A stretch of DNA of 64,000 bases from Bacteroidales bacterium (GCA_017962275.1 JAGCVQ010000094.1:541-64540); one strand, 5' to 3'; counted from the stretch's first letter, positions 2,750 through 62,965 are shown. The notes: generated by a model from the sequence alone, not told the origin. A program made the numbers and translations.

Positions 2750-2759
2750 CCGCATCAAA

Positions 2760-3769: not shown

Positions 3770-3782
3770 TCGGTCCCGATTC
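3767..3782. terminator. Small hairpin between convergent genes
   Basis: The sequence is GAATCGG-TC-CCGATTC. It is a weak stem with no clear U-tract. Confidence 0.25.
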
Positions 3783-3783
3783 T

Positions 3784-3818
3784 CAATTATCAATTATCAA
3801 TTATCAATTCTTAATTGG
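3784..3818. repeat. 7-nt word array (caattat family)
   Basis: The units read caattat x3, caattct, taattgg. The array overlaps the rlmN stop at 3797-3799. Confidence 0.8.
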
Positions 3819-5047: not shown

Positions 5048-5082
5048 AACTACTAACTACTAACTACTAGCTGCTAACTTCC
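5048..5082. repeat. 7-nt word array (aactact family)
   Basis: The units read aactact x3, agctgct, aacttcc. The array contains the miaB stop at 5074-5076. Confidence 0.8.
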
Positions 5083-6384: not shown

Positions 6385-6397
6385 TCGCTTATTGTTT

Positions 6398-6446
6398 GAC
6401 GTGAGACGTGAGACGTGGGACGTGAGATTTGGGACTTTGAACCCCT
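6398..6446. repeat. 7-nt word array (gacgtga ... gactttg family)
   Basis: The units read gacgtga gacgtga gacgtgg gacgtga gatttgg gactttg aacccct. It lies 13 nt from the miaB start. Confidence 0.8.
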
Positions 6447-6515
6447 CATCGCGGGCTTGACCCGCGATCCCCAACATAAACGGAGGGGATGCCGGCTCAA
6501 GGCCGGCATGAGGGG
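6442..6515. repeat. Symmetric cloverleaf-like GC-rich element with twin 21-nt hairpins
   Basis: An outer pair CCCCTC (6442-47) / GAGGGG (6510-15) encloses three inner parts. These are ATCGCGGG-CTTGA-CCCGCGAT (6448-68), CCCC-N12-GGGG (6469-88) and ATGCCGGC-TCAAG-GCCGGCAT (6489-6509). The two 5-nt loops are complementary to each other. Confidence 0.6.
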
Positions 6516-7837: not shown

Positions 7838-7847
7838 AATAAATTAA

Positions 7848-7875
7848 TTGATAATGGATAATGGACAATGGATAA
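7848..7875. repeat. 7-nt word array (tggataa family)
   Basis: The units read ttgataa tggataa tggacaa tggataa. It lies 10 nt from the der start. Confidence 0.75.
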
Positions 7876-7896
7876 TTCCCCTACCTCAATGCCTCT

Positions 7897-7953
7897 TAAC
7901 CATGTAACCGTATAACCATGTAACCGTGTAACCCTCTAACCTTTTAACCATTA
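7897..7953. repeat. 8-nt word array (taaccgtg family)
   Basis: The units read taaccatg taaccgta taaccatg taaccgtg taaccctc taacctttt aaccatta. The array overlaps the yicC stop at 7951-53. Confidence 0.8.
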
Positions 7954-8826
7954 CAAAACATTTGCCAACTGCTCCTTCAATTTCTCCAGCTCGTCCTTCA
8001 TGCGGACCACAATCTGCTGGATGTCGAAATCGTTGCTTTTGGAGCCGAGGGTGTTGATTTCGCGGCCGCACTCCTGCACGATGAAGCCGAGTTTCTTGCC
8101 GTTGGATTGGTTGTCTTGGAGCGTTTCGAGGAAATAGTCGCAATGTTTGCGCAGACGGACTTTCTCCTCGGTGACGTCCAACTTTTCCAGGTAGAAGAAA
8201 ATCTCCTGTTCGAGGCGGTTGGGGTCGTACTGCACCTTCGGGGCGAGGTCTTTGAGGGAAGTCTCGAACTTCTCGCGAATTTTGACGATGCGCTGCTCCT
8301 CGAACGGGGTCACTTCGTCGATCATATCGCGGATCATCGTGATGCGCTTCACGAAATCCTTCTCCAGCACCTTGCCTTCGGAGATGCGGAACTCGTTAAG
8401 TTGTTTGCAAGCGTCGAGGATGGCGTTGCGAAGTTTCTCCCAAAGCTCGTCGCTGACTTCATCTTGCGGGGTGGAGACCACGTCGGGCATCCGCAGCACG
8501 TGCAGGAAGATGTCGCTCTCCACAGGGTTGCCCACATTCTTGGACAACTCCGTAAGCGTCTGATAATAAGACATCGCCAGTTCCGTATTGATGGCCACGG
8601 AACTGCTGACAGAACGGTTTTCGACCGTAATGGTGAAATCCGCTTTGGCACGCTCCAGCTCCTTGGAGAGAATGGAGCGGATGTCGTTTTCATAATTTTT
8701 GAACAGCAGCGGAATCCGGGTGTTCAAGTCCAACTGTTTGCTGTTCAAGGTGCGGATTTCCACGGTGATGCATTTGCCGTCGGTTTCCAGCACAGTCCGA
8801 CCAAAGCCGGTCATGGATTTAATCAT
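7951..8826 (-). CDS. yicC: YicC-family stress-induced protein
   Basis: It has the N-terminal MIKSMTGFGR and the C-terminal EINTLGSKSND motif. Length is 291 aa. Confidence 0.8.
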   Translation of the reverse strand: MIKSMTGFGRTVLETDGKCITVEIRTLNSKQLDLNTRIPLLFKNYENDIRSILSKELERAKADFTITVENRSVSSSVAINTELAMSYYQTLTELSKNVGNPVESDIFLHVLRMPDVVSTPQDEVSDELWEKLRNAILDACKQLNEFRISEGKVLEKDFVKRITMIRDMIDEVTPFEEQRIVKIREKFETSLKDLAPKVQYDPNRLEQEIFFYLEKLDVTEEKVRLRKHCDYFLETLQDNQSNGKKLGFIVQECGREINTLGSKSNDFDIQQIVVRMKDELEKLKEQLANVL

Positions 8827-14229: not shown

Positions 14230-15348
14230 ATGAGCGAAGTACACAATTTTAACGCAGGACCTTGCGTCCTCCCGAAAGAGGCTGTTGAATCCACCATCAA
14301 CGCCATCCGCAACTTTGACAACACCGGCATCGGTCTGATGGAGATCTCCCACCGCACCCCGGGTTGGGAAAGACTTATGGCTGAAACCCGCCAACTTTGG
14401 CGCGATTTGCTCAACATCCCCGACAACTACGAGGTCCTCTTCCTCGGCGGCGGTGCCAGCACCCAGTTCTTCATGGTGCCCGCCAACCTGATGAAGACCA
14501 AGGCCGCCTACCTCCAGACCGGCGTCTGGGCCAAGAAGGCCGCCAAGGAAGCCAAGAACTTCGGCAAAACCGAAATCGTCGCTTCTTCCGAGGACAAAAC
14601 CTACAACTACATCCCCAAAGGATGGACCGTCCCCGCTGACGCCGACTATTTCCACATCACCACCAACAACACCATCTACGGCACCGAAATCCGCAAGGAC
14701 TTCACCGCAGAAGAGTGCAACAATGTCATGCTCGTCGCCGATATGAGCTCCGACATCATGAGCCGTCCCGTCGATGTGACCAAATACGGCCTCATCTACG
14801 GCGGTGCCCAGAAGAACGTCGGTCCTGCCGGTGTCACTTTCGTCATCGTGCGCAAGGACATCCTCGGCCAGATCGGTGACCGCGCCTACATGAACCCACT
14901 GCCCACCATGATCGACTACCGCACCCACGCCGCTGAGGAAGCCAAGAACATCTCCATGTTCAACACGCCCCCCGTGCTCCCCATCTTCGTGATGCACGAA
15001 ACCCTCACCTGGCTGAAGAACACCATCGGCGGTGTCGCTGAAATGAACAAGATCAACATGAAGAAATCCAACCTGCTGTACGAAGAAATCGACCGCAACA
15101 GCATGTTCGTGGGCACCGTCGCCGACAAGGCCGACCGTTCCATCATGAACCACTGCTGGGTGATGGCCCCCGGTTACGAAGACAAGCAGGATGCCTTCAT
15201 GGCTTTCGCCAAAGAACGCGGCATGGTCGGCATCAAGGGCCACCGTTCCGTGGGCGGTTTCCGCGCCTCCCTCTACAACGCTTGCACCGTCGAGGACGTC
15301 GAAGCTCTCGTGGCTTGCATGCAAGACTTCGAAAAAGCAAACAAATAA
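14230..15348 (+). CDS. serC: Phosphoserine aminotransferase
   Basis: It begins MSEVHNFNAGPCVLPKEAV and has a class-V aminotransferase layout. It is adjacent to serA. Confidence 0.9.
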   Translation: MSEVHNFNAGPCVLPKEAVESTINAIRNFDNTGIGLMEISHRTPGWERLMAETRQLWRDLLNIPDNYEVLFLGGGASTQFFMVPANLMKTKAAYLQTGVWAKKAAKEAKNFGKTEIVASSEDKTYNYIPKGWTVPADADYFHITTNNTIYGTEIRKDFTAEECNNVMLVADMSSDIMSRPVDVTKYGLIYGGAQKNVGPAGVTFVIVRKDILGQIGDRAYMNPLPTMIDYRTHAAEEAKNISMFNTPPVLPIFVMHETLTWLKNTIGGVAEMNKINMKKSNLLYEEIDRNSMFVGTVADKADRSIMNHCWVMAPGYEDKQDAFMAFAKERGMVGIKGHRSVGGFRASLYNACTVEDVEALVACMQDFEKANK

Positions 15349-15349
15349 A

Positions 15350-15377
15350 CCCTAAACTCTAAACCCTAAACTAATTA
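15350..15377. repeat. 7-nt word array (ccctaaa family)
   Basis: The units read ccctaaa ctctaaa ccctaaa ctaatta. The array fills the whole serC-serA spacer. Confidence 0.75.
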
Positions 15378-16380: not shown

Positions 16381-17406
16381 ATGGCTGAGAATAAGAATTT
16401 TGTAATAGGCATCACGCAAGGCGACATCAACGGCATCGGCTACGAAGTGATTATCAAGTCGTTGAGCGACAACAGAATCATGGAAATGTGCACCCCCGTG
16501 GTTTACGGACTCTCGAAAGTGGCATCTTACCATAAAAAATATATGGAGATGCCGGACTTCACGTTCCAGTACACCAAAACGGCGGAACAGCTCTCCACCA
16601 AACGTCCCAACCTCATCAACCTCTATGAAGAGGAGGTGAAGATCGACCTCGGTACCTCCACGAAAATCGCCGGCCAGATGGCGGAACGTTCCCTCTACGC
16701 GGCCGGCCGCGACCTGAAAAACAAGCTGATCGACGCCATCGTGACCGCGCCTGTCAACAAAAACAACATCCAGTCCGAAAAATTCAAATTCCCCGGGCAC
16801 ACCGCTTTCTTCGAACACTATTTCGGCGGCAAGGAGTTTCCGGCGCTGATGCTGATGGTGGCCGAGAACCTGCGTGTCGGGTTCGCTACCAACTACATGC
16901 CCGTCAAAGAAGTGGCCGGGAACCTCACCACGGAGGCCCTCGTCCAGAAGCTGGAAATCCTCAACCGTTCGCTCAAGCAGGACTTCGCCCTCAACAACCC
17001 GAAAATCGCTGTGCTGTCTTTCAACCCGCACAACGGCGACGACGGCATCTTAGGGGATGAGGATCAGAAAATCGTGCAACCGGCTGTGGCACAAGCTTTC
17101 CACAACGGCATCAACGCCTTCGGTCCCTTCTCCGCCGACGGTTTCTTCGCCTCCGGTGCCTACACGAAATTCGACGCCGTGCTGGCCATGTACTACGACC
17201 AAGGCATGATTCCGTTCAAGCTGCTCGGCAAAAACGGCGTGAACTTCACCGCCGGACTTCCCATCGTGCGCACCGCCCCCGCCCACGGCACCGCCTACGA
17301 CATCGCAGGCAAAAACATCGCCGACCCGCAGTCCATGCGCAACGCCATCTACCTCGCGATTGACATCCTCCGTAATAGGCAACAGGCATCAGGCATCAGG
17401 CAATAG
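16381..17406 (+). CDS. pdxA: 4-hydroxythreonine-4-phosphate dehydrogenase
   Basis: It carries ITQGDINGIGYEVIIK and RTAPAHGTAYDIAGK. The last 11 codons (RNRQQASGIRQ) are encoded by a heptamer array. Confidence 0.9.
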   Translation: MAENKNFVIGITQGDINGIGYEVIIKSLSDNRIMEMCTPVVYGLSKVASYHKKYMEMPDFTFQYTKTAEQLSTKRPNLINLYEEEVKIDLGTSTKIAGQMAERSLYAAGRDLKNKLIDAIVTAPVNKNNIQSEKFKFPGHTAFFEHYFGGKEFPALMLMVAENLRVGFATNYMPVKEVAGNLTTEALVQKLEILNRSLKQDFALNNPKIAVLSFNPHNGDDGILGDEDQKIVQPAVAQAFHNGINAFGPFSADGFFASGAYTKFDAVLAMYYDQGMIPFKLLGKNGVNFTAGLPIVRTAPAHGTAYDIAGKNIADPQSMRNAIYLAIDILRNRQQASGIRQ

Positions 17407-17408
17407 GG
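17374..17408. repeat. 7-nt word array (aataggc/atcaggc family) inside the pdxA 3' end
   Basis: The units read aataggc aacaggc atcaggc atcaggc aataggg. The array supplies the pdxA stop TAG at 17404-06 and abuts the coaX GTG. Confidence 0.8.
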
Positions 17409-20887: not shown

Positions 20888-21451
20888 ATGTCGTTCAACC
20901 CTAAATATCTGTACATAAGCATCATAACGGCTTCGTTCGTTATGATGCTTTTTGCTGGCTGCAAGTCGAAGGAGGGTCACGCCCAGCTGTTGGAGTTCGA
21001 AGGCAAATTCCCTGACGAGTCGGCCGAGAACATGACCATCACGGTGAGCGATTCCGGACAGACCGCCTTCATCGTGAACGCCCCCATGCTCAACCGCTAC
21101 AACGGCGACACCACCTACACCGACTGTCCGAAAGGCATCGTAATCACCTCGTTCAACGATTACGGGCGGAAACAGGCCGTCATCACCGCCGACTATGCCT
21201 GCCAGATCAACAACAACCTCTTCAAGGCCACCGGCAACGTCATCATTTACGACTATACCAACGGCGACTCCGTTATCACCGAGGAGGTGATCTGGGACCA
21301 GCGCAAACGCTCCATCTATTCCACCAAGCAGGTGAAGCAGGTGAAACGGGACGGCTCAGTGAACTACGGGGACGGTTTCGACGCGGACGAACGGTTTACG
21401 AAATACACCATCATTCACCCTCACGGGGAGATGGTGGGATATGATTTCTGA
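20888..21451 (+). CDS. lptC: LptC-like periplasmic LPS export protein
   Basis: It has an N-terminal anchor, beta-jellyroll-like repeats (ATGNVIIYDYTNGDSVITEEVIWD) and a size of 187 aa. Confidence 0.5.
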   Translation: MSFNPKYLYISIITASFVMMLFAGCKSKEGHAQLLEFEGKFPDESAENMTITVSDSGQTAFIVNAPMLNRYNGDTTYTDCPKGIVITSFNDYGRKQAVITADYACQINNNLFKATGNVIIYDYTNGDSVITEEVIWDQRKRSIYSTKQVKQVKRDGSVNYGDGFDADERFTKYTIIHPHGEMVGYDF

Positions 21452-25252: not shown

Positions 25253-26091
25253 AATACCTCGGACCACACGTCAGCGCCTCCGGAGGCGTGGAGAACGCCC
25301 CGCTGAACGCCATGCAGGTGGGCGCCACGGCGTTTGCCCTGTTCACGAAAAACCAGCGGCAGTGGTTCTCCGCACCTTTGAGCGAAAAATCCATCTCCGC
25401 CTTCAAGGAAAACCTCGAAAAATCGGGCATTTCCACCGACTATGTGCTGCCGCACGACAGCTACCTCATCAACCTTGGCAGTCCCGATGCGGAGGGCTTA
25501 GAAAAATCCCGCAACTCGTTCCTCGAAGAGATGCAACGCTGCGAGCAACTCGGGTTAAAAATGCTTAATTTCCATCCGGGCAGTCACCTCAAACAGATCA
25601 CCTTGGAAGAATGTCTCACCCGCGTGGCCGAAAGCATCAACTTCGCATTGAACAAAACCCAGGGTGTGACCGCCGTCATTGAGAACACGGCCGGACAAGG
25701 CTCCAACGTGGGCTTCAGCTTCCAACATTTAGCGTATATCATTGACAAAGTGGAAGATAAGAGTCGTGTAGGGGTCTGTCTCGACACCTGCCACACCTAC
25801 TCCGCGGGCTACGACCTCAAAACCGAAGCAGGCTACAAAACCACCTTCGAAGAATTTGAGGAAGAGGTTGGGTTCAAGTACCTGCGGGCCATCCATCTCA
25901 ACGACACAAAGAAAGAGTTCGGTAGCCGCGTGGATCGCCACGACAGCATCGGCAAGGGTCTTTTGGGCATGGAATTCTTCGAACGCTTCATGAAAGACCC
26001 GCGTTTCGATAACATGCCGTTGATTCTCGAAACCCCGGACGAAACGTTGTGGGCAGAGGAGATTCAACGGCTGTTGGCGGTTAGCTGTTAG
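25249..26091 (+). CDS. nfo: Endonuclease IV
   Basis: It begins [13 protein letters not shown] and has HxxYLINL and LNFHPGSH motifs. Its ATG overlaps the purM stop (ATGA at 25249-52). Confidence 0.9.
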
Positions 26092-26096
26092 CTTTC

Positions 26097-26159
26097 CCTA
26101 TTGCCTCTATCCTATTGCCTTTTGCCTTTTGCCTTTTGCCTATTGCCTTTTGCCTCCTA
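26097..26159. repeat. 7-nt word array (cctattg/ccttttg family), nine units
   Basis: It lies between the convergent nfo stop (26089-91) and the kinase stop (26157-59). It is the reverse complement of the GGCAATAG family. Confidence 0.85.
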
Positions 26160-27014
26160 CGGGAACACCAGCGCGAAAACCGTCTGGTGGCGGTCGCTTT
26201 GGCGTAGCAAGAGGGAGCCGTTATGGCGTTGCATGATGCGGCGCGAGAGGCTCAGTCCGATGCCGTTACCGTTAGGTTTGGTGGAATAGAAGGGCACGAA
26301 AATCTCCTCTTGCTGGCGCAATGGAACAGGCTTGCCGTTGTTGCGCACCTGAATCACCGTGCGATCCTCGTTGTCTAATTCGGCCATCAACTTAATTTCC
26401 GAGGCATTCGCCTCCAACGCATTCTTAACCAGATTGTTGAAAACCTGCATCAACTGCGATTCGTCCGCATAAAGCATTAAGTCGGGCGGATTGACCTGGT
26501 AGGTGATGACGGCGTTGCAATCCACCACCTTGATTTCGTTGAGACGCACTACCCTATCCAACAATTCACTGACCATCAATGTTTTGCAAACAGTCGGGGT
26601 CGCTTTGGTAAACGTGCGGTACGACTCCACAAAACGAATCAGCTCCTTCGAAGAGGAGGAGATGGTCTCCAATCCCGCCTTCGTGTCCAACGTGTCGTCT
26701 TTCGCAAGGGCATCGCTGAGGGCGGCAATCGGGGTCACCGTGTTCATCATCTCGTGCGTGATGACACGGAAGAGCTTGCTCCACGAAATCTCCTCATTGT
26801 TAGCGCTTTGCCGCTCCACAATTTTGCGGATGCGGTTGAGTTCACGGTTCATAGCCGAATTATCGCGGAAACGGAAATTCGTCTCGCCATCCTCCAAAGC
26901 ATCCATCATGTAGGCCACCTTTTCGCGGTTGCGCTTCAACACCCACAAAGCAGCCAGCAAAGCCGACACAATGCAACCGCCTGCCAATATTCCTATCCAA
27001 GCCCACGTACTCAT
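26157..27014 (-). CDS. Sensor histidine kinase (one TM helix, HisKA and HATPase domains)
   Basis: It has the H-box ITHEMMNTVTPI, the N-box NLVKNALEA and the G-box GNGIGLSLSRRI. Confidence 0.8.
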   Translation of the reverse strand: MSTWAWIGILAGGCIVSALLAALWVLKRNREKVAYMMDALEDGETNFRFRDNSAMNRELNRIRKIVERQSANNEEISWSKLFRVITHEMMNTVTPIAALSDALAKDDTLDTKAGLETISSSSKELIRFVESYRTFTKATPTVCKTLMVSELLDRVVRLNEIKVVDCNAVITYQVNPPDLMLYADESQLMQVFNNLVKNALEANASEIKLMAELDNEDRTVIQVRNNGKPVPLRQQEEIFVPFYSTKPNGNGIGLSLSRRIMQRHNGSLLLRQSDRHQTVFALVFP

Positions 27015-36275: not shown

Positions 36276-36292
36276 GATTGGGGTCGCCCGTT

Positions 36293-36383
36293 CCTTTTGC
36301 CTTTTGCCTTTTCCCTGTTGCCTATTGCCTTATAACTGCTAACTACTAACTGCTAACTACTAACTGCTAACTACTAACTCGTC
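36293..36383. repeat. 13-unit 7-nt word array with two families joined in one phase
   Basis: The units read ccttttg x2, ccttttc, cctgttg, cctattg, ccttata, then actgcta/actacta alternating x6, then actcgtc. The array contains the MFP stop at 36360-62 and encodes the protein's last residues. Confidence 0.85.
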
Positions 36384-37622
36384 TGCCTCCCCAAACCGTT
36401 CGTACGACGACGTGATCACCCTTTCCCCGGGCTCCAGCCCTTCAAGCACCTCGTAGTACTGCGGGTTCTGGCGGCCGATGCGGATTTCGCGTTTCACGGC
36501 TTTGGTGCCGTCGGGCGAGAGGACATAGATCCACTTGCCGCCGGTGGTTTGGTAGAACGCACCACGGGGGATTAAAATTGCCTCCACGGGCTGACCGAGC
36601 TGCAAATTTAGGTAAAAAGTCTGGCCGTTGCGAATGTTTGTAGGTTGCTCGCCAGAAAATTTGAAGTCGGCCTTGAACTTGCCGTCACGAACCTCGGGAT
36701 AGACCTTGCGTATCAGCACGTTATGCTTGCCATCCTGACGCTCCACCGTGGCTTCCAAACCCGCTGTCACCCGGTCGATGTAGTGCTCGTCTATCAGGGC
36801 TTCGATTTTGTAGTTGTCCTGATTGTTGATCTGTCCAACCTTGCTGCCCATCGCGACAGATTGCCCGAGCACCACATCCACCAGACCCAACTCGCCGTCA
36901 ATAGGCGCTTTGATGGTGAGATTCTCTTTCCGTTTGCGTATCATCTGCATGTTAAGTCGCATATTTTCAAGACTTTCGCGCATCTGTCGAATTTCGACGG
37001 AGCGATAGAGGCTGTCCTGCTTGGCGCGGTTCTCCACTAACGTCAGACGGTCCTGCGCCAGCTGGTAATCCTCCTCGGCCTGCAAAAAGGCCTCTTTCGC
37101 TATGAGATTGTCCTGATAGAGTGCCTTTTGAGAGTCGTAGGTGCGCTTCTTGCGACGAACCTCCATCCGCAACTGCAACATCTCCTGCTGCAACGTCAGT
37201 TTCTGTTGTTCCATGGAAATCAAGGTGTTACGCAAGATATTCTCTTTCTCAGCCAAGTCTGCCTCGGCGTTCAGAATCTGCATGTCGAGACTTTCGTTGC
37301 TGAGAACCAATATGACGTCGCCCTCGCGCACGTGCGAGCCCTCTTCCGCCACGATCTGCTGCACTATCCCACCCTCCAACGGACTGAGCTGCACGGTCGT
37401 CATGGGCACCACGCGCCCGCTCACACGGATGTAGTCGTTGAACTCGCCTCGCCGCACTTCGCTCACGGTGAGGTCGTTACCGCCCACGCGCAGCTTCTTC
37501 GCATCGTCACGTAGTAACAGCCACCCGATGAAGAGCAGCAAGAGTGCGCCGCCCCAGAAGGGGATGGCCTTGCGGGTGAAGATTTTTCGGATTCCTTTTG
37601 TTGGTTCTATTGTTCTGTCCAT
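36360..37622 (-). CDS. Efflux periplasmic adaptor (HlyD/MacA-type membrane fusion protein)
   Basis: It has an N-terminal TM helix, a coiled-coil hairpin (LTLQQEMLQLRMEVRRKK...) and beta-barrel C-terminal domains. Length is 420 aa. Confidence 0.85.
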   Translation of the reverse strand: MDRTIEPTKGIRKIFTRKAIPFWGGALLLLFIGWLLLRDDAKKLRVGGNDLTVSEVRRGEFNDYIRVSGRVVPMTTVQLSPLEGGIVQQIVAEEGSHVREGDVILVLSNESLDMQILNAEADLAEKENILRNTLISMEQQKLTLQQEMLQLRMEVRRKKRTYDSQKALYQDNLIAKEAFLQAEEDYQLAQDRLTLVENRAKQDSLYRSVEIRQMRESLENMRLNMQMIRKRKENLTIKAPIDGELGLVDVVLGQSVAMGSKVGQINNQDNYKIEALIDEHYIDRVTAGLEATVERQDGKHNVLIRKVYPEVRDGKFKADFKFSGEQPTNIRNGQTFYLNLQLGQPVEAILIPRGAFYQTTGGKWIYVLSPDGTKAVKREIRIGRQNPQYYEVLEGLEPGERVITSSYERFGEADELVVSS

Positions 37623-37720: not shown

Positions 37721-37736
37721 AGTGTTTTTAATATTA

Positions 37737-37771
37737 TTCTTCATTATGCATTCTTCATTCTTCATTGATAA
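37737..37771. repeat. 7-nt word array (ttcttca family)
   Basis: The units read ttcttca ttatgca ttcttca ttcttca ttgataa. The array contains the TolC stop at 37755-57. The minus-strand sense reads TGAAGAA repeats. Confidence 0.75.
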
Positions 37772-39107
37772 GCCTCGCGTAGTACCGCACCACCTCGCAT
37801 TTCACGAAATACGTCAACCTCGCGTGCAGGTATTCGGCGGTGGCGTTCAGGTGGTTGTCGGCGACGGTTTGGTATTCGACGGCGGAGGTGAGGCCTTGCT
37901 CGAATTGTTTGGTGCTCAGCGCGTAAAGTTCCTGCTGGAGGGCGGCGTGCTGCTGTGCCTGGCGCAGGGCTTCGGCGGCACCGTCACGGTCGGCGATGGC
38001 GCGGCGCACCTCCGCGTCGGCCTCGTGTTGCGCCTGCTCGCGCCGCGCCTCCGCACGGTCGAGTTCGTTGCGCCGCCGCGCGATCTCAGACTGCCGCGAA
38101 AAACGGTCGTAAATCGGGATGTTCAGCGACAGCTGCACGTACTCACCGCCATTGTCTGCGATCTGTCGCCAGTAAGGGGCTGGCACATAGCCTGTTTTGC
38201 CGGGATAGGTAAAGTAGGTCGAGGACCAGCCGCCATACAACGACAGCGACGGCAACAGCCGCCACTTCGCGGTCCTGAGGGCGATGCGGGCGGTCTCATA
38301 CTCCCCATTGGCTATGATTACTCGCGGAAGCCGAGTCACCGCCTGCATCGCCCTTGCCGCCTCATCCTCATTGCCGGAAGATGTCGCGCCAAACATGGAA
38401 TCCGGCCATTCCATATCGATGTTCAACACCTTTTGATTATCATACAACATAATGTCTGTCAGGGTGATATATGCGTCATTGAGATGATTGCTGCATACCG
38501 TCAATTGATATTCACGGTCGGAGAGTTCCGCCTTGGTATGCAGCACATCGGAGTAGGATTTCTGTCCCAATTCGTACTGCCGCTGCGCAAAAAGCATCGC
38601 CTTCTCGGCCGTGTTCACCTGTGCGCGAATGGCGTTACTCAATTCGGTATAGTAAAGCACGTTGCAGTAAGCCTCCATCACGGCGAGACAGAGTCGGTCC
38701 TCAACCTGCTGTTGCTTGGTCAGTCCTGACTGTTCCGCAATCTTCGTGATTTTCAGATTGTTGACTGCCTGAAAACCGTTAAACAACGTGATGCCCGCCG
38801 ACAATCCATACCCATTGTGGAAAGAGGTAACCGTACTGTAGGTGTTGGTTTCGGGGTCAATCGAGCGTCCGAAGTTGGAATAAGCATACGCATCGCCACT
38901 GACGGTCGGGGTGAAGGCCCTGAGGATGGCCTCGCGACGGGAAATCTGCGCGTCCCGACAGTCTGCTTGCTGCAACCTCACTTCCGCTGAATGTGCCAAA
39001 GCGTAGCTCATGCACTCCCGCAACGTCATCCGCACGGTGTCCTGCGCGTGCGCCGTAAAAGACAGCACTGTCATCAGCATCATTATTATCCACATTCGCA
39101 AATACAT
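37755..39107 (-). CDS. TolC-family outer-membrane efflux protein
   Basis: It has a signal peptide ending FTAHAQ and two TolC repeats. It is 450 aa and is the first gene of the efflux cluster. Confidence 0.85.
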   Translation of the reverse strand: MYLRMWIIMMLMTVLSFTAHAQDTVRMTLRECMSYALAHSAEVRLQQADCRDAQISRREAILRAFTPTVSGDAYAYSNFGRSIDPETNTYSTVTSFHNGYGLSAGITLFNGFQAVNNLKITKIAEQSGLTKQQQVEDRLCLAVMEAYCNVLYYTELSNAIRAQVNTAEKAMLFAQRQYELGQKSYSDVLHTKAELSDREYQLTVCSNHLNDAYITLTDIMLYDNQKVLNIDMEWPDSMFGATSSGNEDEAARAMQAVTRLPRVIIANGEYETARIALRTAKWRLLPSLSLYGGWSSTYFTYPGKTGYVPAPYWRQIADNGGEYVQLSLNIPIYDRFSRQSEIARRRNELDRAEARREQAQHEADAEVRRAIADRDGAAEALRQAQQHAALQQELYALSTKQFEQGLTSAVEYQTVADNHLNATAEYLHARLTYFVKCEVVRYYARLINEE

Positions 39108-39120
39108 CCTATTTATATAT

Positions 39121-39211
39121 TGGCTATTAGTTGTTGGCTATTGGCACTAAACCATAAACCCTAAACCAAACCATGCCAATGCCGTGCCAAACCGGCAAAT
39201 CGCTAATCGAC
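39121..39211. repeat. Extended 7-nt phased region (tggctat, aaaccat, aatcgct words)
   Basis: The units read tggctat tagttgt tggctat tggcact aaaccat aaaccct aaaccaa accatgc caatgcc gtgccaa accggca aatcgct aatcgac. It starts 13 nt from the tolC start and includes the sigma-54-like element. Confidence 0.6.
39174..39189 (-). promoter_or_regulatory. Candidate sigma-54 promoter TGGCACGGCATTGGCA
   Basis: The GG-N10-GC spacing is satisfied. The -24 TGGCAC is perfect and the -12 is TGGCA against the consensus TTGCA. It lies about 65 nt upstream of the tolC ATG, and a sigma-54 bEBP is encoded in the same cluster. Confidence 0.45.
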
Positions 39212-39483: not shown

Positions 39484-39518
39484 ATAGGCAATAGGCAACA
39501 GGCAATAGTGATTAGGTA
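39484..39518. repeat. 7-nt word array (ataggca family)
   Basis: The units read ataggca ataggca acaggca atagtga ttaggta. Confidence 0.75.
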
Positions 39519-39610: not shown

Positions 39611-40603
39611 ATGAAAAAACTCCTCTACTGGATTCAAAATGCGCGGGCGTACGCGCTGCCGCAGAGCGTACTTCCCTCCCTGGTGGCCGTCTTCATGGCC
39701 GCCGGCAACGAGAATTTTTCCATCGGACTGAGCATCGTGGCGGTGCTGGGGGTGATGATCGCCCACCTGTCCGTCAACCTTTTCGACGACTACTTCGATT
39801 ACCCCTTCCACAGCGAAGAGGCGCGCGAGGAGACCGTGGCGGAGGGACAGCGCGCCCGCATCGCGAAAAGTCCCTACCTGACTTCCGGCGAGGTGACGAC
39901 GAAACAACTCTTCATCGTGGCTTCCCTGTTCGCGCTGGCCGCCATCCTGTTGGGCTGCATCGTCTTCATAAAACGCGGACTTATACCGCTTTACATTGCC
40001 TTGGCCGCCGGTTTTCTCGGATTTTTCTATTCCGGAAAACCCATCCGCTTCTGCTATCACGGTCTGGGCGAATTGGTCACAGGTCTCATTTTCGGTCCTT
40101 TGCTGATGGCCGGCGTACACTATGCGGCGTGCGGCACGCTCAACGCCAGTCTGTACGTGGTTTCCGTCGCTGTCGGTTTGTGGGTGGTCAACATTCTTTA
40201 CACCCACTCCATCATGGATGCCACCGCCGACCGCAAAGTGGGCAAAAAGACGCTGGCCGAAGTGTTGAAAACCAAGCCGCTGAAATTGGCCGCCTCCGCC
40301 GTCTTCAATTTTACGCCGTATCTCATCTTACTTATCTCATTGATTAACGGCTCCTTACATCCGATCTTCGCCGCTATTTATATCATTCTCCCGCTATCTG
40401 TTGCCCTGTTCTACCTGCTGTATCAGTTCTGCTATCATCCCGAGCGAGAATTCGAACGCAAATGGTGGTACGGCCCCATCGAGCATTGGGATGCCATCTG
40501 CGAAAACCATCTCGAATGGTTCGCCATCCGCTGGTTCCTGGCCCGCAACATCCTGCAATTCGCGAGCCTCATCTTCATCGTTTGCTCTTTGGTCTCCCAT
40601 TGA
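39611..40603 (+). CDS. UbiA-family prenyltransferase (MenA-like)
   Basis: It has about 8-9 TM helices and the Asp-rich motif NLFDDYFDY. Length is 330 aa. Confidence 0.65.
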   Translation: MKKLLYWIQNARAYALPQSVLPSLVAVFMAAGNENFSIGLSIVAVLGVMIAHLSVNLFDDYFDYPFHSEEAREETVAEGQRARIAKSPYLTSGEVTTKQLFIVASLFALAAILLGCIVFIKRGLIPLYIALAAGFLGFFYSGKPIRFCYHGLGELVTGLIFGPLLMAGVHYAACGTLNASLYVVSVAVGLWVVNILYTHSIMDATADRKVGKKTLAEVLKTKPLKLAASAVFNFTPYLILLISLINGSLHPIFAAIYIILPLSVALFYLLYQFCYHPEREFERKWWYGPIEHWDAICENHLEWFAIRWFLARNILQFASLIFIVCSLVSH

Positions 40604-40633
40604 TTTCTGGTTGTTAGCTGGTGATATTTGGTA

Positions 40634-40696
40634 AAGGCTAATAGCCAAAAGCTAAAAGCTAATAGCCAGATGCAAATAGCTGAAAGCTAAGCGCTA
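40634..40696. repeat. 7-nt word array (aaagcta/atagcca family), nine units
   Basis: The units read aaggcta atagcca aaagcta aaagcta atagcca gatgcaa atagctg aaagcta agcgcta. Confidence 0.8.
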
Positions 40697-40727
40697 AAAA
40701 AAAATGCTCAATTGTACGAAAAAAAAC

Positions 40728-40837: not shown

Positions 40838-41509
40838 ATGAACATCGAAAAATACGACGAAATCCGGGCTTCCTTGCCCGCCGGCGTGCGACTGGTCGCC
40901 GTCTCCAAATTCAAACCGGCGGAGGACATTGCCGCGCTGTACCAACATGGGCAGCGCGTTTTTGGTGAGAACCATGCGCAGGAGATGAAATCCAAACACG
41001 AGATTCTTCCTCAAGACATCGAATGGCACTTCATCGGGCACCTGCAAACCAACAAAATCAAATACATCGCGCCGTATGTTGCACTGATTCACAGCATTGA
41101 CAGCTTCAATTTGCTGAAAGAGGTCAACAAACAGGCTGTCAAGAACAACCGCGTAATTCCCTGCCTGCTGCAATTCCACATCGCCGACGAAGAGACCAAA
41201 TTCGGGTTCAGTTTGGAAGAATGCGAGGAGATGCTGCAAAGCCCCGATTTTCAGGAGTTAAAAAACGTGAAAATCCACGGGGTAATGGGCATGGCCACTT
41301 TCACGGACGACCACGGGCAGGTGCGCCGAGAGTTCCATCATCTGCATGACATTTTCGAAACACTCAAATTCCGATATTTCTCGCAAAATCCTGATTTCAA
41401 AGAGCTTTCGATGGGCATGACCGACGACTACCCCATCGCCATCGAGGAGGGCAGCACCCTGATCCGTATCGGCAGCGCCATTTTCGGCCCACGGAATTAT
41501 CAGACGTGA
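40838..41509 (+). CDS. yggS: YggS-family PLP-binding homeostasis protein
   Basis: It carries RLVAVSKFKPAEDI (the PLP lysine) and HFIGHLQTNK. Length is 223 aa. Confidence 0.85.
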   Translation: MNIEKYDEIRASLPAGVRLVAVSKFKPAEDIAALYQHGQRVFGENHAQEMKSKHEILPQDIEWHFIGHLQTNKIKYIAPYVALIHSIDSFNLLKEVNKQAVKNNRVIPCLLQFHIADEETKFGFSLEECEEMLQSPDFQELKNVKIHGVMGMATFTDDHGQVRREFHHLHDIFETLKFRYFSQNPDFKELSMGMTDDYPIAIEEGSTLIRIGSAIFGPRNYQT

Positions 41510-41565
41510 GACGTATGACGTAAGACTTTGAACTTGAAACTTTGAACCTTGAACTTTGAACTTTA
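41503..41565. repeat. 7-nt word array (gacgtga ... aactttg family)
   Basis: The units read gacgtga gacgtat gacgtaa gactttg aacttga aactttg aaccttg aactttg aacttta. The first unit supplies the yggS stop TGA at 41507-09. The vocabulary matches 6398-6446. Confidence 0.85.
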
Positions 41566-53206: not shown

Positions 53207-53902
53207 ATGGCACAGAAAAAATTCGCCGTCATCGGCGCGGGACAGTTCGGACAGGCCATCAGCCTGGCGCTCTCGGAGAAGGGCTTCGAGGTGTTGGTCA
53301 TCGACAGGGACATGAAGAAGGTGCAGAGCATCAGTGACGATGTGGCCTACGCCGTCTGCACGGACGCCACCGACAAGCGCGCATTGCTCAACGAAAACAT
53401 CAAGGACTTCGACGCCGTGATTGTGGCCATCGGTGACGACTTTGTGGAGCGATTGCTCTGTATTTCCAACCTCATTGACCTCGGTATCAGCAAGATATAC
53501 TGCCGTACCAAAGGCTCTCACCAGCAGACCATTCTCGAAAAGATGGGCATCACCGAATTCCTGTCACCTGAAGAGGAGCTGGCCACGATGCTGGCTGAAC
53601 GGCTGAGTAACCCCAACATCCTCTCCTACCTGCAGATGCCAGACGAATACCGCATTGCCTCCATCATCGCTCCCGACCGGCTTGAAGGACTCACCCTCGG
53701 CGACATCAACTTCCGCGACAACCACCACCTCAGCTTGGTGACCATCCGTCGCAACTTCGAAGAGATTGAGAACAAGGAACTCACTATGAAACAACACATT
53801 ATAGGCGTTCCTGACAATTCGACGGTCATCCGCAAAGACGACGTCTTCGTGTTGTTCGGCAAAGACCGTGACATTGATAACTTCATCAAAATCAACCTGT
53901 AA
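53207..53902 (+). CDS. trkA: Potassium uptake protein TrkA/KtrA (NAD-binding)
   Basis: It begins MAQKKFAVIGAGQFGQAISLAL and has a TrkA-C region. I chose ATG 53207, downstream of the promoter box. Confidence 0.85.
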   Translation: MAQKKFAVIGAGQFGQAISLALSEKGFEVLVIDRDMKKVQSISDDVAYAVCTDATDKRALLNENIKDFDAVIVAIGDDFVERLLCISNLIDLGISKIYCRTKGSHQQTILEKMGITEFLSPEEELATMLAERLSNPNILSYLQMPDEYRIASIIAPDRLEGLTLGDINFRDNHHLSLVTIRRNFEEIENKELTMKQHIIGVPDNSTVIRKDDVFVLFGKDRDIDNFIKINL

Positions 53903-55704
53903 TGCGTCTGTTCGGTAATCGCGACGAATACCACGGGAAGCTCCGCGTCCACATCGTAAACAACAAAGACCGCATCCAACTGGCCCTCCAGATTTGCAGT
54001 CTGTTGATTTCCCTTGTGACCATCGCGTGCATTTTCTGCTACCACGGACTTTACATCACCCAACAGACCAAAAACCTCATCCGCTGGCTGATTCATGCCA
54101 GCCTTTTCTTCTATGTCATCAAATATTTCGTACTGCTTTTCTACTCACTTCACCGAGGCGAATACATTCGGCAATCGTGGGTCGAGTTTCTGATCATCAT
54201 CATCCTGATACTACAGTTCATCTCCGTCCATTTCTTCCACTTTGACATCTTTGATGCCCAAAACTTTGAGAATATCTACCTGATTTTCATTCAGTTCTAT
54301 TTCCTCATCATCGTTTTGGTGGAGATTGCGAAGATGAGCAGTTCCTTGGGAAAGTACCATCTCAGCCCGCCCATTCTGATGGTGGGATCGTTCCTCTTCC
54401 TGATTGCCATCGGTACGCTTCTGCTGAAGATGCCGCGCATGACCAACTACGGCATCTCCTTCATTGATGCGCTTTTCACGGCCACCAGCGCGAGTTGCAT
54501 CACCGGTCTTTCGGTAGTGAGCACACCGGAAACCTTCACCTTCAAAGGACAACTTGTGATTCTGGTGCTGATCCAGTTGGGCGGCATGAGCATCCTCTCG
54601 TTCGCTACCTTCTTCTCCACATTTTTGTCCCGTTCAATGGTCGGACTGCGCTACCAATACATGATCCGCGACATGATGTCCACCGACCGCCTTTCCGATT
54701 CGGTAGGGTTGTTGCGGAGCATCGTGCTCACCACCTTCATTATCGAGGCGGCAGGTGTTGCGTTTATGTTCACCTATTGGAAATCCACGGGCTTTTTCCT
54801 TTCCGACAAACAGAATCTCTTTTTCTCGATTTTTTACACCGTTTCGGCCTTCAACAACGGCGGTTTCGTACTCATTGACGACAGTCTGCTGAACCTCGGC
54901 GTGCCGGGCAGCTACTTCCCGCAAGTGGTCATCATGGCGTTGGTGTTCCTCGGCGGCATCGGGTTCGTCACCATCCGCGACTTTTTCAGCTACCGATACA
55001 TCCGCGAACGCAACAAATATCGCTGGAAAACGCTGATGCCACAAACCAAAATCGTCCTTTATGTCACGTTTGCCATCATCATCATCGGCAGCGTGCTCTT
55101 TTTCCTGCTCGAATACAATAACACCTTGAAAGATATCAACGGGATGGGAAACAAAGTTTTCACCACCGTCTTTCAAGTGGTCACTTGCCGGACTTCCGGC
55201 TTCAATGTGTTGGACCTCAACAAGATGCATGTTGCCACAATCATTCTGATCTTGGTGGCTATCTTTATTGGCGGTTCACCAAGCTCCACCGGCGGCGGCA
55301 TCAAAACCACCTCGTTGTTCATCGTCATTAAGTCCGTGATAGCTACCGTGAACGGCAAGAAAAACATCGAGTTCGACCACAAGTCGATTTCGCCGGCGTT
55401 GGTGGAAAAAGCAACCACCATCATGATGATGTCGGCCGGTTTCATCTTAGTATCATGTTTCCTGCTTACAGCGGTGGAACCCGATGTGCAGCTGCTGCAC
55501 GCGCTGTTCGAGACCTCCTCGGCGTTCACCACCTGCGGACTTTCCACCGGAGAATGCGCCAACTGGAACTGGATCGCCAAGCTCATCCTCACCGTCAATA
55601 TGTACTGCGGCCGTATCGGCACCCTGACGCTGGCCTTCGCCCTTACCCGTCACAAAAAGGAATCGCCGCACCAGTACCCCGACCTCTACATCATGATCGG
55701 CTAA
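53902..55704 (+). CDS. trkH: TrkH/KtrB-family potassium transporter
   Basis: It is polytopic and has selectivity-filter-like motifs (SCITGLS, AFNNGGF, TSGFN, TCGLSTG). Confidence 0.85.
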   Translation: MRLFGNRDEYHGKLRVHIVNNKDRIQLALQICSLLISLVTIACIFCYHGLYITQQTKNLIRWLIHASLFFYVIKYFVLLFYSLHRGEYIRQSWVEFLIIIILILQFISVHFFHFDIFDAQNFENIYLIFIQFYFLIIVLVEIAKMSSSLGKYHLSPPILMVGSFLFLIAIGTLLLKMPRMTNYGISFIDALFTATSASCITGLSVVSTPETFTFKGQLVILVLIQLGGMSILSFATFFSTFLSRSMVGLRYQYMIRDMMSTDRLSDSVGLLRSIVLTTFIIEAAGVAFMFTYWKSTGFFLSDKQNLFFSIFYTVSAFNNGGFVLIDDSLLNLGVPGSYFPQVVIMALVFLGGIGFVTIRDFFSYRYIRERNKYRWKTLMPQTKIVLYVTFAIIIIGSVLFFLLEYNNTLKDINGMGNKVFTTVFQVVTCRTSGFNVLDLNKMHVATIILILVAIFIGGSPSSTGGGIKTTSLFIVIKSVIATVNGKKNIEFDHKSISPALVEKATTIMMMSAGFILVSCFLLTAVEPDVQLLHALFETSSAFTTCGLSTGECANWNWIAKLILTVNMYCGRIGTLTLAFALTRHKKESPHQYPDLYIMIG

Positions 55705-55756
55705 CCCCATAACCGTGTAACCGTGTAACCGTGTAACCCCTCTACCCGTGTAACCC
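55702..55756. repeat. 8-nt word array (taaccgtg family)
   Basis: The units read taacccca taaccgtg x3, taacccct, ctacccgtg, taaccc. The first unit supplies the trkH stop TAA at 55702-04. Confidence 0.85.
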
Positions 55757-60780: not shown

Positions 60781-60822
60781 ACCCCTTTTAACCCTGTAAC
60801 CCTTTAACCCTGTAACCCTAAT
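60781..60822. repeat. 8-nt word array (taaccctg family)
   Basis: The units read taaccctg taacccttt aaccctg taacccta. The array contains the GH3 stop at 60818-20. Confidence 0.8.
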
Positions 60823-62965
60823 ACCTCACCTCCAACTCCTGGTCCCCATAATGGAACACAAACGTCCCGGGATGATTCTCAAAATGCTGATACCCATCCA
60901 CAAACGTTTGGAAAAAGTCATCGTCAATCTCGAACGACACCCACACAGACTGTCCGGCGGGCACAAAAACCCGCTCGTATCCCACCAGTGTTTTCACCGG
61001 ACTTTTGGGATCCCCGCTGTTGGTCAGGTAAAGTTGCGCTACCTCTTCGCCGTCTCGGTCCCCAGTGTTCTCAATACGGAACGTAAAGGTATGTGTATTC
61101 TGGTCATATCGTCCGTCCGTATGTTTGAAATCCGTGTAACTCAATCCATAACCAAATGGATAAAGAGGAGTTTCGGTCATGTAGCGGTAGGTACGGTGCT
61201 CCATTTCGTAACTGTCAAACGGAGGAATATAATTACCTACACTATAGAATGTTACGGGAAGTTTGCCGCTCGGATTCACCTTGCCGAAAAGAACATCGGC
61301 CAAAGCTGTTCCCGCCGCCTGACCGCCGTACCAGGCTGCCAGCACCGCATCCAAATTCTCGTCTTCCCAATCCAAGGCCACCGCACCTCCGGAACAGAGC
61401 ACAAACACAACGGGCTTCCCCATCTTCTTGATTTTCATCAACATACCCTCCTGAATGCGCGGCAGATCGATGGTGGTTCGGTCGCCACCGTGAAACCCTT
61501 GCATCTCCACTTTCAGCTCCTCTCCTTCCAACTCCGGCGAAAGTCCGCCGACGAAAATCACGAGGTCGCACTTCGCGATTTGCTTGTCGAAATCATTCGG
61601 CAGACGGTATGTGCCATCAACGTGATGGCAGGCAGTGTCGAAATAGATATGAGGACGGTCCTTGGCGGGTAACTGTTTGATATAGTTGACGATACCTTCA
61701 TAAATGGTGACCGCATGACGGGGCGTGCCGTTATAGTTGCCACAGAGCATCACTGAATCCGCCGCATTGGGACCCACAATGGCGATGTTTTTGTACTTTG
61801 CAGGTTCCAACGGGAGGATTTTATTGTTATTCTGCAACAAAACTATACTTTTTTGTGCCATTTCGAGGGCTTTCTGCTCAAAGAGGGTCGTATCCGGCAT
61901 CTCCGTAAACGGCTGTTTCGGATCGAACATGCCCAATTCAAAACGGGCTTTGAGAATCTTAAACACATGATTATCAATAATGTCAATCGGCACCATCCCT
62001 TTGTCGTACGCCTCCTTCAAGGCATTCAATCCGCTGCCGCACTCCAAATCCACAACGGAACCGAACGCGGCGGTGGCAGCATCCGCAGCACTCGCGTGCG
62101 TCTCGTGCCTCGGAATAACAGTGTCGCGCTCCCAACAGTCGTTCAACGCCCAGCAATCGGTGACAAACAAACGATCGTAACCCCACTGCTCGTGCAAAAT
62201 ATTCACCAACAGCTTCTCGTTAGTGCAGCACGGCATCCCGTTCAGCCGGTTGTAACCGCACATCACCATGCCCACGTCCGTATGGTTCACAATATACTTA
62301 AACGCAGGCAGATAGGTCGTCCAAAGGGCCCGCCCACTGACGGTGGCATCGAACGAATGCCGGTCAGCTTCCGGACCGCTGTGCACAGCGAAATGCTTGA
62401 TGCAGGCGAGAGTCTTGTATCGACCGTCCACCATTTGCTGCAGGCCATTGACGCAGGCGGTACCCATGCGGGCGGTGAGGTATGGATCCTCGCCATAGGT
62501 CTCCATGCCCCGGCCCCAGCGCGGGTCGCGGAAGATATTGATGTTCGGGGTGAAAAACGTCAGCCCCGTATAGTCACCATATTCGCCAGCCTGCTGCGAA
62601 CGGTAATATTTCATCCGTGCCTCGTCAGCAATCATGCCGAACATCTCCTCCACCGCCTTGTCATCGAAAGTGGCGGCCAACGCGGTAGGCATCGGATAGA
62701 CCGTCGCGAAACCGTTGCGGGCCACCCCGTGCAACGCCTCGTTCCACCAACTGTAAGCCGGAATTCCCAACCGCTCAATGGCGGGATTCTGATGCTCCAT
62801 CATCCCCAACTTCTCTTCCAAAGTAAGCTGGTCCAGAAGCAGTTGCACCCGCTCGTCAATCGGAAGGTCCGGGTTGCGAAAGTCCTGCTGCGCCGCCGCG
62901 CAAAAGACGATGATGATTCCTATTAGGCTGACGAAGATTTTTCTCATATCGCTGATTTTAATCAA
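60818..62965 (-). CDS. Glycoside hydrolase family 3 (beta-glucosidase/xylosidase type)
   Basis: It has a signal peptide and the motifs WNEALHG, KHFAVHSGPE and VTDCWA. Length is 715 aa. Confidence 0.85.
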   Translation of the reverse strand: MIKISDMRKIFVSLIGIIIVFCAAAQQDFRNPDLPIDERVQLLLDQLTLEEKLGMMEHQNPAIERLGIPAYSWWNEALHGVARNGFATVYPMPTALAATFDDKAVEEMFGMIADEARMKYYRSQQAGEYGDYTGLTFFTPNINIFRDPRWGRGMETYGEDPYLTARMGTACVNGLQQMVDGRYKTLACIKHFAVHSGPEADRHSFDATVSGRALWTTYLPAFKYIVNHTDVGMVMCGYNRLNGMPCCTNEKLLVNILHEQWGYDRLFVTDCWALNDCWERDTVIPRHETHASAADAATAAFGSVVDLECGSGLNALKEAYDKGMVPIDIIDNHVFKILKARFELGMFDPKQPFTEMPDTTLFEQKALEMAQKSIVLLQNNNKILPLEPAKYKNIAIVGPNAADSVMLCGNYNGTPRHAVTIYEGIVNYIKQLPAKDRPHIYFDTACHHVDGTYRLPNDFDKQIAKCDLVIFVGGLSPELEGEELKVEMQGFHGGDRTTIDLPRIQEGMLMKIKKMGKPVVFVLCSGGAVALDWEDENLDAVLAAWYGGQAAGTALADVLFGKVNPSGKLPVTFYSVGNYIPPFDSYEMEHRTYRYMTETPLYPFGYGLSYTDFKHTDGRYDQNTHTFTFRIENTGDRDGEEVAQLYLTNSGDPKSPVKTLVGYERVFVPAGQSVWVSFEIDDDFFQTFVDGYQHFENHPGTFVFHYGDQELEVRY

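Follow-up and report, generated by a model that had tools for sequence, protein, structure and literature searches.

A 64,000-nucleotide stretch of DNA from a Bacteroidales bacterium (GCA_017962275.1 JAGCVQ010000094.1:541-64540; hereafter the window, numbered from its first letter) carries, at positions 36293–36383, an array of degenerate 7-nt words that runs into the end of a gene for an HlyD-type efflux component. Arrays of 7- or 8-nt words recur at many other gene boundaries of the window, which raises the question of what generates them and whether they serve a purpose. The arrays are specific in period, anchored at stop codons and subject to turnover of word and copy number, and their stop-codon coverage and low folding are those of their composition. 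They are probably microsatellites with 7- and 8-nt units, driven by slippage, that occupy spacer free of constraint as far as the last codon under constraint; we infer that slippage is the generating process and that the arrays are close to neutral.

Periodic arrays at gene ends

Tandem Repeats Finder was run on the window, together with a separate period scan in which arrays were counted at a score of at least 10 and the chance level was the mean of 30 second-order Markov shuffles. The scan returned 16 period-7 arrays against 0.03 expected and three period-8 arrays against 0.27 expected, a density of about one array per 3 kb. Periods 2–6 and 9–13 gave zero to two arrays each, and period 14 merely mirrors period 7. 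Tandem Repeats Finder gives a period-7 or period-8 array at all 17 sites that an earlier note on this DNA had listed and adds arrays at 26070–26093 and 48805–48821, the latter within a coding sequence (CDS). At 36293–36383, two word families are joined in one unbroken 7-nt phase for 13 units, as described earlier. Two sites call for revision. At 39121–39211, only 39118–39145 and 39148–39168 score, the remainder being degenerate, and the array given as 40634–40696 is present (40632–40699) but weaker than described, with 63% of positions matching.

In about half of the arrays (approximately 11 of 22 tabulated), the upstream gene's stop codon falls within the array or directly borders it. The stop often belongs to the repeating pattern itself: at 15346 the sequence reads TAA-ACCC-TAA-ACTC, and at 55702 it reads TAA-CCCCA-TAA-CCGTG. 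When spacer length is controlled for, anchoring at the stop end is significant (Fisher p = 1.3e-4) in spacers with enough room for the position of the array to be informative, even with each probability doubled to allow either spacer end. The closeness to stop codons and the bias to gene 3' ends noticed earlier therefore persist after this control. In short spacers, the array is the entire spacer (15346–15377; 26093–26159). At both array-bearing convergent junctions, each gene's own array abuts its own stop (3727–3769 with 3779–3818; 26070–26093 with 26093–26159). The strong arrays of the window all lie between genes or reach into a gene no further than its stop and final codons, and none of 131 GTTAGYA arrays in a metagenome sample lies inside an open reading frame (ORF). 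In the window's clade, about 22% of gene 3' ends have an abutting array, as frequently before a co-directional neighbour (23.8%) as before a convergent one (18.8%); a role specific to the downstream cistron is thus ruled out. Arrays are about 2.5-fold rarer per kilobase of spacer in divergent regions. The genes next to arrays are functionally unrelated, housekeeping and efflux genes among them. The arrays of the window are as follows.

3727..3769, plus strand: AGGCAAT/AGGCAAC, about 6 units, 14-nt higher-order period; begins at the TAA stop of plus-strand gene 2694..3728
3766–3783 (approximate): short hairpin parting arrays 3727..3769 and 3779..3818
3779..3818, minus strand: TGATAAT (ATTATCA on the plus strand), about 5 units; holds the stop of convergent minus-strand gene 3797..4840
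5048..5082, minus strand: AGTTAGT/AGTTAGC, about 4.6 units; holds the stop of MiaB-like gene 5074..6477
6398..6446, minus strand: composite of four GACGTGA units, then GACTTTGAAC (plus strand); sense (minus) strand C-rich and without a stop; about 14 nt upstream of the probable MiaB-like start, placed from a Pfam domain that begins at ORF residue 34
7845..7876, minus strand: TAATGGA (sense TCCATTA), about 4.6 units; lies 8 nt before gene 6533..7837 begins; no sense-strand stop
7897..7953, minus strand: 8-nt TAACCRTG (sense CAYGGTTA), about 7 units, 16-nt higher-order period; holds the stop of gene 7951..8826
15346..15377, plus strand: four TAAACYC units; the first TAA is the stop of gene 14230..15348; takes up the full 28 nt of spacer before the ATG at 15377
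17374..17408, plus strand: AGGCAWC, about 4–5 units; holds the stop of gene 16381..17406
26070..26093, plus strand: GCTGTTA/GTTAGCT, short, 3.4 units; 3' end and stop of the plus-strand gene ending at 26091
26093..26159, minus strand: AGGCAAA/AGGCAAT, 9 units; fills the convergent spacer and abuts the stop of histidine-kinase gene 26157..27014
36293..36331, minus strand: AGGCAAN, about 5.6 units; in phase with array 36333..36383
36333..36383, minus strand: GTTAGTA/GTTAGCA, about 7 units, 14-nt period 100% identical; the HlyD C-terminus (ELVVSS) and the TAG stop of gene 36360..37622 come from its first units
37736..37771, minus strand: GAATGAA, about 4.5 units; holds the stop of TolC-like (OEP) gene 37755..39107
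39118..39170, no strand assigned: four TATTGGC units, then three TAAACCA units; in the divergent region from the TolC-like start to tRNA-Glu, with degenerate units continuing to about 39211
39484..39518, plus strand: ATAGGCA, about 4–5 units; 35 nt past tRNA-Glu and its terminator-like hairpin
40632..40699, plus strand: degenerate TAAAAGC/TAATAGC, about 9.7 units, 63% matches; 28 nt past the stop of gene 39611..40603, between that stop and tRNA-Arg(CCG)
41502..41565, plus strand: composite of 3.6 AGACGTR units, then 5.7 ACTTTGA units; holds the stop of gene 40838..41509; 12 nt separate its end from the ATG at 41578
55702..55756, plus strand: 8-nt TAACCGTG, about 6–7 units; the first TAA is the stop of gene 53902..55704; sense strand C-rich, as in few arrays
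60781..60822, minus strand: 8-nt, sense AGGGTTAC/AGGGTTAA, about 4–5 units, 16-nt period 100% identical; holds the stop of gene 60818..62965

Turnover at orthologous junctions

The host of the window is an uncultured rumen/gut Bacteroidales. Its nearest public genomes are Bacteroidales metagenome-assembled genomes (MAGs) from goat, yak and deer rumen, with HlyD identities of 86–87% to the nearest of these rumen MAGs; Candidatus Limimorpha, Cryptobacteroides and Egerieisoma are more remote. The genes of the window include those for HlyD/MacB/TolC-type efflux components, a sigma-54 activator, a histidine kinase and the MiaB-like protein. A cyanobacterial origin is ruled out by a count of 0 for HIP1 (the highly iterated palindrome), the presence of sigma-54 activator genes and the Bacteroidales affiliation of the closest genomes. 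Array density is high only within the window's own clade and patchy across the rest of the order, where many relatives have spacers of 10–20 nt in place of arrays. Loci from related assemblies are designated here by L numbers. L001, an independent ENA assembly of the same strain, carries identical arrays; over 21 kb, it differs by 8 single-nucleotide polymorphisms, all outside arrays, and by no indel, which excludes an assembly artefact. L084–86, L087/88 and L082/83 form near-identical sets among the relatives. Array variation is therefore seen only between species-level relatives.

The junction downstream of HlyD records this variation. In most Bacteroidales, HlyD homologues end in DVLVF followed by the stop and a spacer of 10–20 nt, the ancestral end. 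In the array-rich clade, it is replaced by array-encoded tails (VLEM, VLEIKN, VLEMKNVE, ELVVSS and ELIVDR, each closed by the stop). An array is present at the HlyD stop in all of five lineages, but neither its word nor its number of units is constant.

Window: seven GTTAGTA/GTTAGCA units followed by five AGGCAAN units
L002 and L003: six GAATTAA/GAATTAT units
L082 (protein 97% identical): five AGTTGAT/AGTTAAT units
L087: GAATGAT, about 2.5 units
L085: GAATGAT, about 12 units
L084: GAATGAT, more than 15 units; scaffold broken by Ns

The indels between relatives at this stop amount to +7, +7 and about +56 nt. In L084 (11326–11425), a run of N interrupts the GAATGAT array within a 253-kb scaffold that otherwise matches L085 with 100% identity on both flanks, which indicates that long heptamer arrays break or are mis-sized in short-read metagenome assemblies.

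Other junctions behave similarly. The TolC–HlyD spacer consists wholly of a 3–4-unit GTTAGTA/GTTAGCA array in L002 and L084–88, where the array provides the TolC stop and abuts the HlyD ATG. The same spacer contains four ATAACCN units in L003 and, in the window, four GAATGAA units and an inserted hairpin element. At the 15346 junction, the window has four TAAACYC units in a 28-nt spacer, and L136, with flanks 87% identical, has three GTTAGYA units in an 85-nt spacer. At orthologous junctions, array presence and period persist; word and copy number do not. The array edges lie exactly where protein conservation stops. Conservation in sister genomes, a check proposed in the earlier note, is thus absent at the level of the array sequences. 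The two HlyD junctions are ruled out as hot spots, as they hold 22 of 91 arrays, less than twice the expectation from 2 of about 15 junctions per locus.

These observations are consistent with a mechanism in which replication slippage would create arrays and remodel them by one or two units (7/8 or 14/16 nt). Arrays would begin at or around a stop codon and then spread through free untranslated spacer, on one side up to the last selected codon. Selection would act only as a filter, preventing persistence in reading frames and leaving fewer arrays in divergent, promoter-only regions. Perfect 14- or 16-nt higher-order repeats at 36333–36379, 15346–15372 and 60787–60819 point to recent expansion, and together with the unit-step indels they suggest slippage as the source. 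Under this mechanism, multi-frame stops, the lack of RNA structure, and variable C-terminal tails and spacer lengths would be by-products rather than purposes.

The stop codons within the units bear on a different explanation. As 7 and 8 are not multiples of 3, the earlier note had proposed that the arrays act as frame-independent translational stops after read-through or frameshifting. All three sense frames are covered in 8 of 16 arrays, and in many arrays the gene's own stop lies within the array or at its start. However, units whose columns were permuted, with composition and period kept, are expected to give 7.4 such arrays (P = 0.47). The TAGs cited at 3736, 3750 and 3764 are present. 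The TGA run at 6402–6423 is also correctly located, but on the strand opposite to the flanking genes. Stops are missing from the sense strand of arrays 6398 and 7848 and from the AGGCAAA units, and 26097–26159 covers only two frames, as was recognized earlier as a counter-example. Nor does the orientation bias described below derive from stops, since GTTAGYA has stops in all frames on both strands. A stop function is therefore most improbable. Among the outcomes named in advance as pointing to neutral slippage debris, frame coverage at chance and unconserved array sequences were both found, whereas the third, a missing positional bias, was not, the bias being real.

Folding likewise follows composition. 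The arrays fold at -0.084 kcal/mol/nt, compared with -0.18 for CDS or other intergenic DNA, and their own mononucleotide shuffles fold at -0.087 kcal/mol/nt. The weak folding is thus due to composition, and a special folding property is ruled out. The absence of hairpins stated earlier is confirmed in 15 of 16 arrays; the exception, the array given as 40634–40696, folds strongly over 40632–40699 (-16.7 kcal/mol sense, -20.7 antisense) because its units contain the palindrome AGCT. No terminator-like site was found in the arrays, and the count in 33000–42000 is at shuffle level; being unstructured, the arrays fall outside the definition of an intrinsic terminator, a GC-rich hairpin with a U-tract. 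Sigma-70 promoter counts in the arrays are at shuffle level in a scan that does not cover Bacteroidales promoters. An Rfam search of the window returned only four tRNAs and nothing credible at 36100–36400, where a U1 match (E = 0.08) represents chance.

Word recurrence and strand orientation

The slippage account covers neither the preference for periods 7 and 8, nor the recurrence of words within the genome, nor the orientation of the arrays. Several observations weigh against it. Identical words and composites recur within the genome above chance, an excess that slippage acting locally and independently at each site would not predict. Among unit pairs of the 17 arrays, 3 are identical against 0.19 expected and 12 differ by one mismatch against 3.6 expected (P = 0.003 each). 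All word-family recurrences listed earlier at unlinked loci are present. The two assemblies of the same strain contain no array differences. Finally, the arrays are oriented. ORFs that end at a GTTAGYA array lie on its G-rich strand in 59 cases and on the other strand in 11 (p = 4e-9). For other words, the counts are 75 and 14 over all fetched loci, and 31 and 9 when only words with stops in at least two frames on both strands are considered. Such a rule needs strand-specific selection or mutation tied to transcription.

The recurrence could reflect copying of arrays between loci by ectopic recombination, gene conversion or small mobile cassettes. The composite of GACGTGA followed by GACTTTGAAC occurs at both 6398 and 41503, in opposite orientation relative to the flanking genes, and an identical 14-mer, GTTAGTAGTTAGCA, is shared between non-equivalent junctions of the window and of sister genomes. 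In several rumen contigs, GTTAGYA arrays are joined to AGGCAAN or ACTTTGA arrays. Copying is nevertheless improbable: no terminal repeats, target duplications or transposase accompany the arrays, whose edges match codon constraints rather than element ends, and related units can arise in place by single spreading mutations (GAATTAA to GAATTAT to GAATGAT).

The orientation is also apparent in base composition. The pooled sense strand of stop-abutting arrays has a GC skew of +0.28 and 63% purine, compared with -0.03 and 51% for CDS, which supports the earlier claim of an asymmetry between G and C. In the window and sister loci, G exceeds C on the sense strand of 22 such arrays and C exceeds G in 4; stop-abutting arrays with a C-rich sense strand are found at 15346, at 55702 and in L003 at 9969. 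Part of the G excess is expected because stop codons contain no C. The fixed word (GTTAGYA)3, with stops in all frames on both strands, was therefore tested. A metagenome scan located it in at least 120 contigs from many habitats, ranging from 25 to 69% GC, and it is from these that the ORF counts above for GTTAGYA derive. Upstream of starts, the preference is reversed, with the TRCTAAC strand being sense in 25 cases against 12. A replication-strand cause of the skew is ruled out, as the plus strand of the window is C-rich in 9 arrays and G-rich in 7; in the window, the orientation bias follows transcription and not the replication strand.

The word itself is not favoured. In a viral collection, (GTTAGYA)3 occurs in 35 contigs, and three composition-matched permuted heptamers occur in 24, 41 and 18. 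A universally preferred or horizontally spread word is thereby ruled out, and the spread of GTTAGYA over contigs reflects the general abundance of heptamer arrays rather than a shared element. Its copy number in metagenomes declines in a roughly geometric manner: 64 arrays have 3 units, 36 have 4 and 13 have 5, with a tail to 15 and no preferred unit number, four included. In L091 (1401–1477) and L137 (approximately 116–200), a GTTAGYA array is followed within about 30–40 nt by its reverse complement, a TRCTAAC array; such an inverted pair could form a long hairpin, unlike the window arrays.

These abundances also bear on whether the words are sites for sequence-specific DNA- or RNA-binding proteins, with one regulon per word family. 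Families recur at unlinked loci beyond chance, binding proteins have been proposed in the literature for TAACTGA and Nostoc heptamers, and deletion of heptamer repeats from Nostoc constructs alters reporter output in both Nostoc and E. coli. Against this, the orthologous junctions of sister genomes carry unrelated words, dozens of different words occur in about 150 kb of the window's clade beside functionally unrelated genes, and the test word is no commoner than its permuted controls. Protein-binding sites are accordingly a distinctly improbable explanation.

The orientation rule leaves slight room for a selected role at the RNA level that does not depend on the word. Such an element would be an unstructured, purine-rich and C-poor stretch in the 3' untranslated region or between cistrons, of which composition, orientation and non-structure would be selected while words were free to turn over; it could block Rho loading past the stop, serve as a landing zone for RNase or S1, or insulate neighbouring structures. 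The strong, transcription-tied orientation fits this proposal, as do the purine and G excess of the sense strand, folding less than half as strong as in CDS or other intergenic DNA, and the retention of an array at the same junction across lineages despite a change of word. In Bacteroidia, translation does not respond to Shine-Dalgarno sequences and is adjusted through mRNA structure, and roles in stability or coupling have been suggested for the cyanobacterial short tandemly repeated repetitive (STRR) sequences. On the other hand, low structure follows from composition alone, the arrays are dispensable in most relatives, and convergent ends are equally array-bearing, leaving no specificity for a downstream cistron. 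The C-rich sense strands at 15346, at 55702 and in L003 are also at odds with it. Furthermore, the same orientation preference is reported for Nostoc, and cyanobacteria are not known to have Rho, so avoidance of Rho cannot be the general cause. We regard a selected RNA element as unlikely. The arrays may also act as spacers, an alternative mentioned earlier.

Relation to known heptamer repeats

The earlier note knew of no described element class that matched the arrays. Heptanucleotide long simple sequence repeats (LSSR), cyanobacterial STRRs, TAACTGA repeats and GGGNATC repeats have, however, already been described. The arrays of the window belong to the known general class of fast-changing bacterial heptamer simple-sequence repeats, and they lie outside the specific definitions of STRRs, TAACTGA repeats and quadruplex repeats. 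The described classes are all intergenic, near gene ends, strain-variable in 7-nt steps and restricted to some lineages, and slippage of the polymerase is the origin most often put forward for them.

LSSRs, as summarized in two later papers, have units of 5–11 nt in which heptamers dominate, occur in lineage-specific bursts, are attributed to proposed polymerase slippage, and are excluded from coding regions where the unit length is not a multiple of 3 (Mrazek et al. 2007, via PMC4679880, PMC4692102). The window arrays share their above-chance tandem 7-nt units, their confinement to non-coding DNA and their whole-unit copy changes (about 2.5, about 12 and more than 15 units of GAATGAT; 3 or 4 units of GTTAGYA in the TolC–HlyD spacer). 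In those summaries, the survey does not include this rumen Bacteroidales lineage, to which the window adds a high density and 8-nt units.

With STRRs, which have been proposed to affect the stability of transcripts or to couple translation, the arrays share dispersed intergenic 7-bp arrays, few word families per genome and an occasional location between genes of the same operon. The host of STRRs is cyanobacterial and that of the window belongs to Bacteroidales, and the words differ; the arrays are thus STRR-like rather than STRRs. The STRR1–3 words are CCCCAGT, TTGGTCA and CAACAGT. Some STRRs form hairpins, whereas the window arrays almost never fold.

TAACTGA repeats are known from Beggiatoaceae, Cyanobacteria and five Bacteroidetes, including one member of Bacteroidales (MacGregor 2015, PMC4679880). 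They, too, are intergenic heptamers that abut gene boundaries, differ between strains by 7-nt-step indels and are mixed with other heptamers (PMC4679880). The nearest word in the window, TAACTGC/TAACTAC, is one base off, and the window holds no tandem TAACTGA even with one mismatch allowed. Membership is ruled out by this lack of a tandem copy and by the reverse orientation, at stops, of the window copies (5048, 36333). TAACTGA repeats lie in forward orientation a few nucleotides upstream of starts (PMC4679880), whereas the window arrays are mainly stop-anchored and reverse. That forward orientation is matched by the metagenome arrays whose TRCTAAC strand is sense upstream of starts.

The GGGNATC/GGGGAYT quadruplex heptamers of Xanthomonas and Nostoc have their G-rich strand as the coding strand after a stop, whereas before an ORF it is the non-coding one (Rehm et al. 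2015, PMC4692102). This orientation rule and the scarcity between divergent genes are both shared by the window arrays, as is the occupation of the same junctions in sister species by repeats of different length and sequence (PMC4692102). Most window units contain G or GG and are thus unable to fold into G-quadruplexes; only 60781–60822, with sense AGGGTTAC and a GGGG tract, has at least four GGG tracts.

Phase-variation contingency repeats are also strain-variable in copy number, but they usually have 1–5-nt units inside frames or between promoter elements of surface-antigen genes. The window arrays follow the stops of housekeeping and efflux genes, where a copy change switches no reading frame. 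They also differ from clustered regularly interspaced short palindromic repeats (CRISPR), with 24–48-nt repeats and unique spacers, in that their 7–8-nt units are contiguous and without spacers. Matches to eukaryotic telomere motifs at 15350–15371, 39147–39168 and 60781–60822, among them the plant-type CCCTAAA and, in the 8-mers, GGGTTA, are almost certainly coincidental.

Repeats of other kinds are present nearby. An element of about 75 nt (TTCCTTGAGCAGTCCCGAAGGGACAAGACGCACGAAGTGCAATTAACCCCACATAAGCGAAGCGCAATGTGGGGG) lies on the minus strand at 4884–4943, 32437–32510, 36148–36221 and 37645–37701 and is also found in L082 (approximately 4060–4180 and 5520–5610), L097 and L105. In the window, it lies 20–45 nt upstream of four minus-strand starts, those of gene 3797..4840, an ATP-binding cassette (ABC) ATPase, a MacB/FtsX permease and HlyD. 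It folds into three hairpins, and in each of them copies differ by one compensatory double change. Rfam offers no credible match, and the element may represent a structured leader not described before or a repetitive extragenic palindromic (REP)-like element of efflux operons. Upstream of three of the four window copies, at the stop of the preceding gene, there is a heptamer array. A 22-nt unit (CATCGGCTCATGCGTATATAGG) repeated 5.2 times with 95% identity at 21460–21572, between the stop of gene 20888..21451 and tRNA-Arg(CCT) at 21578–21650, is a tandem repeat of another kind than the heptamer arrays. A HipA_C-domain gene beside a helix-turn-helix gene (33306–33758; 13865–14317 in L001) encodes 150 amino acids, compared with 412 in the related L082 (7970–9208), which suggests a truncated toxin gene in the window strain.

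Microsatellites produced by slippage and filtered by selection probably remain the best description of the arrays, and their practical consequences leave this basic classification unchanged. The arrays break metagenome scaffolds, as in L084, and cause predicted stops and C-termini to differ from one strain to another; they might also be used to type strains. A broader reading, that several phyla keep an unstructured, purine-rich and C-poor RNA tract immediately after stops, with orientation, composition and period selected and the word drifting, is quite unlikely. If it held, the tract may shield untranslated RNA from termination or decay factors or handle ribosomes after termination, and the orientation rule (59:11; 75:14; Xanthomonas and Nostoc) would be the signature of such selection. 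Heptamer arrays have a record that goes back to 1990, and a rumen Bacteroidales lineage now joins the array-rich bacteria. It provides three quantitative handles on them: anchoring at stop codons, a turnover of word and copy number that rewrites C-termini, and a transcription-tied strand rule that extends across words and habitats.

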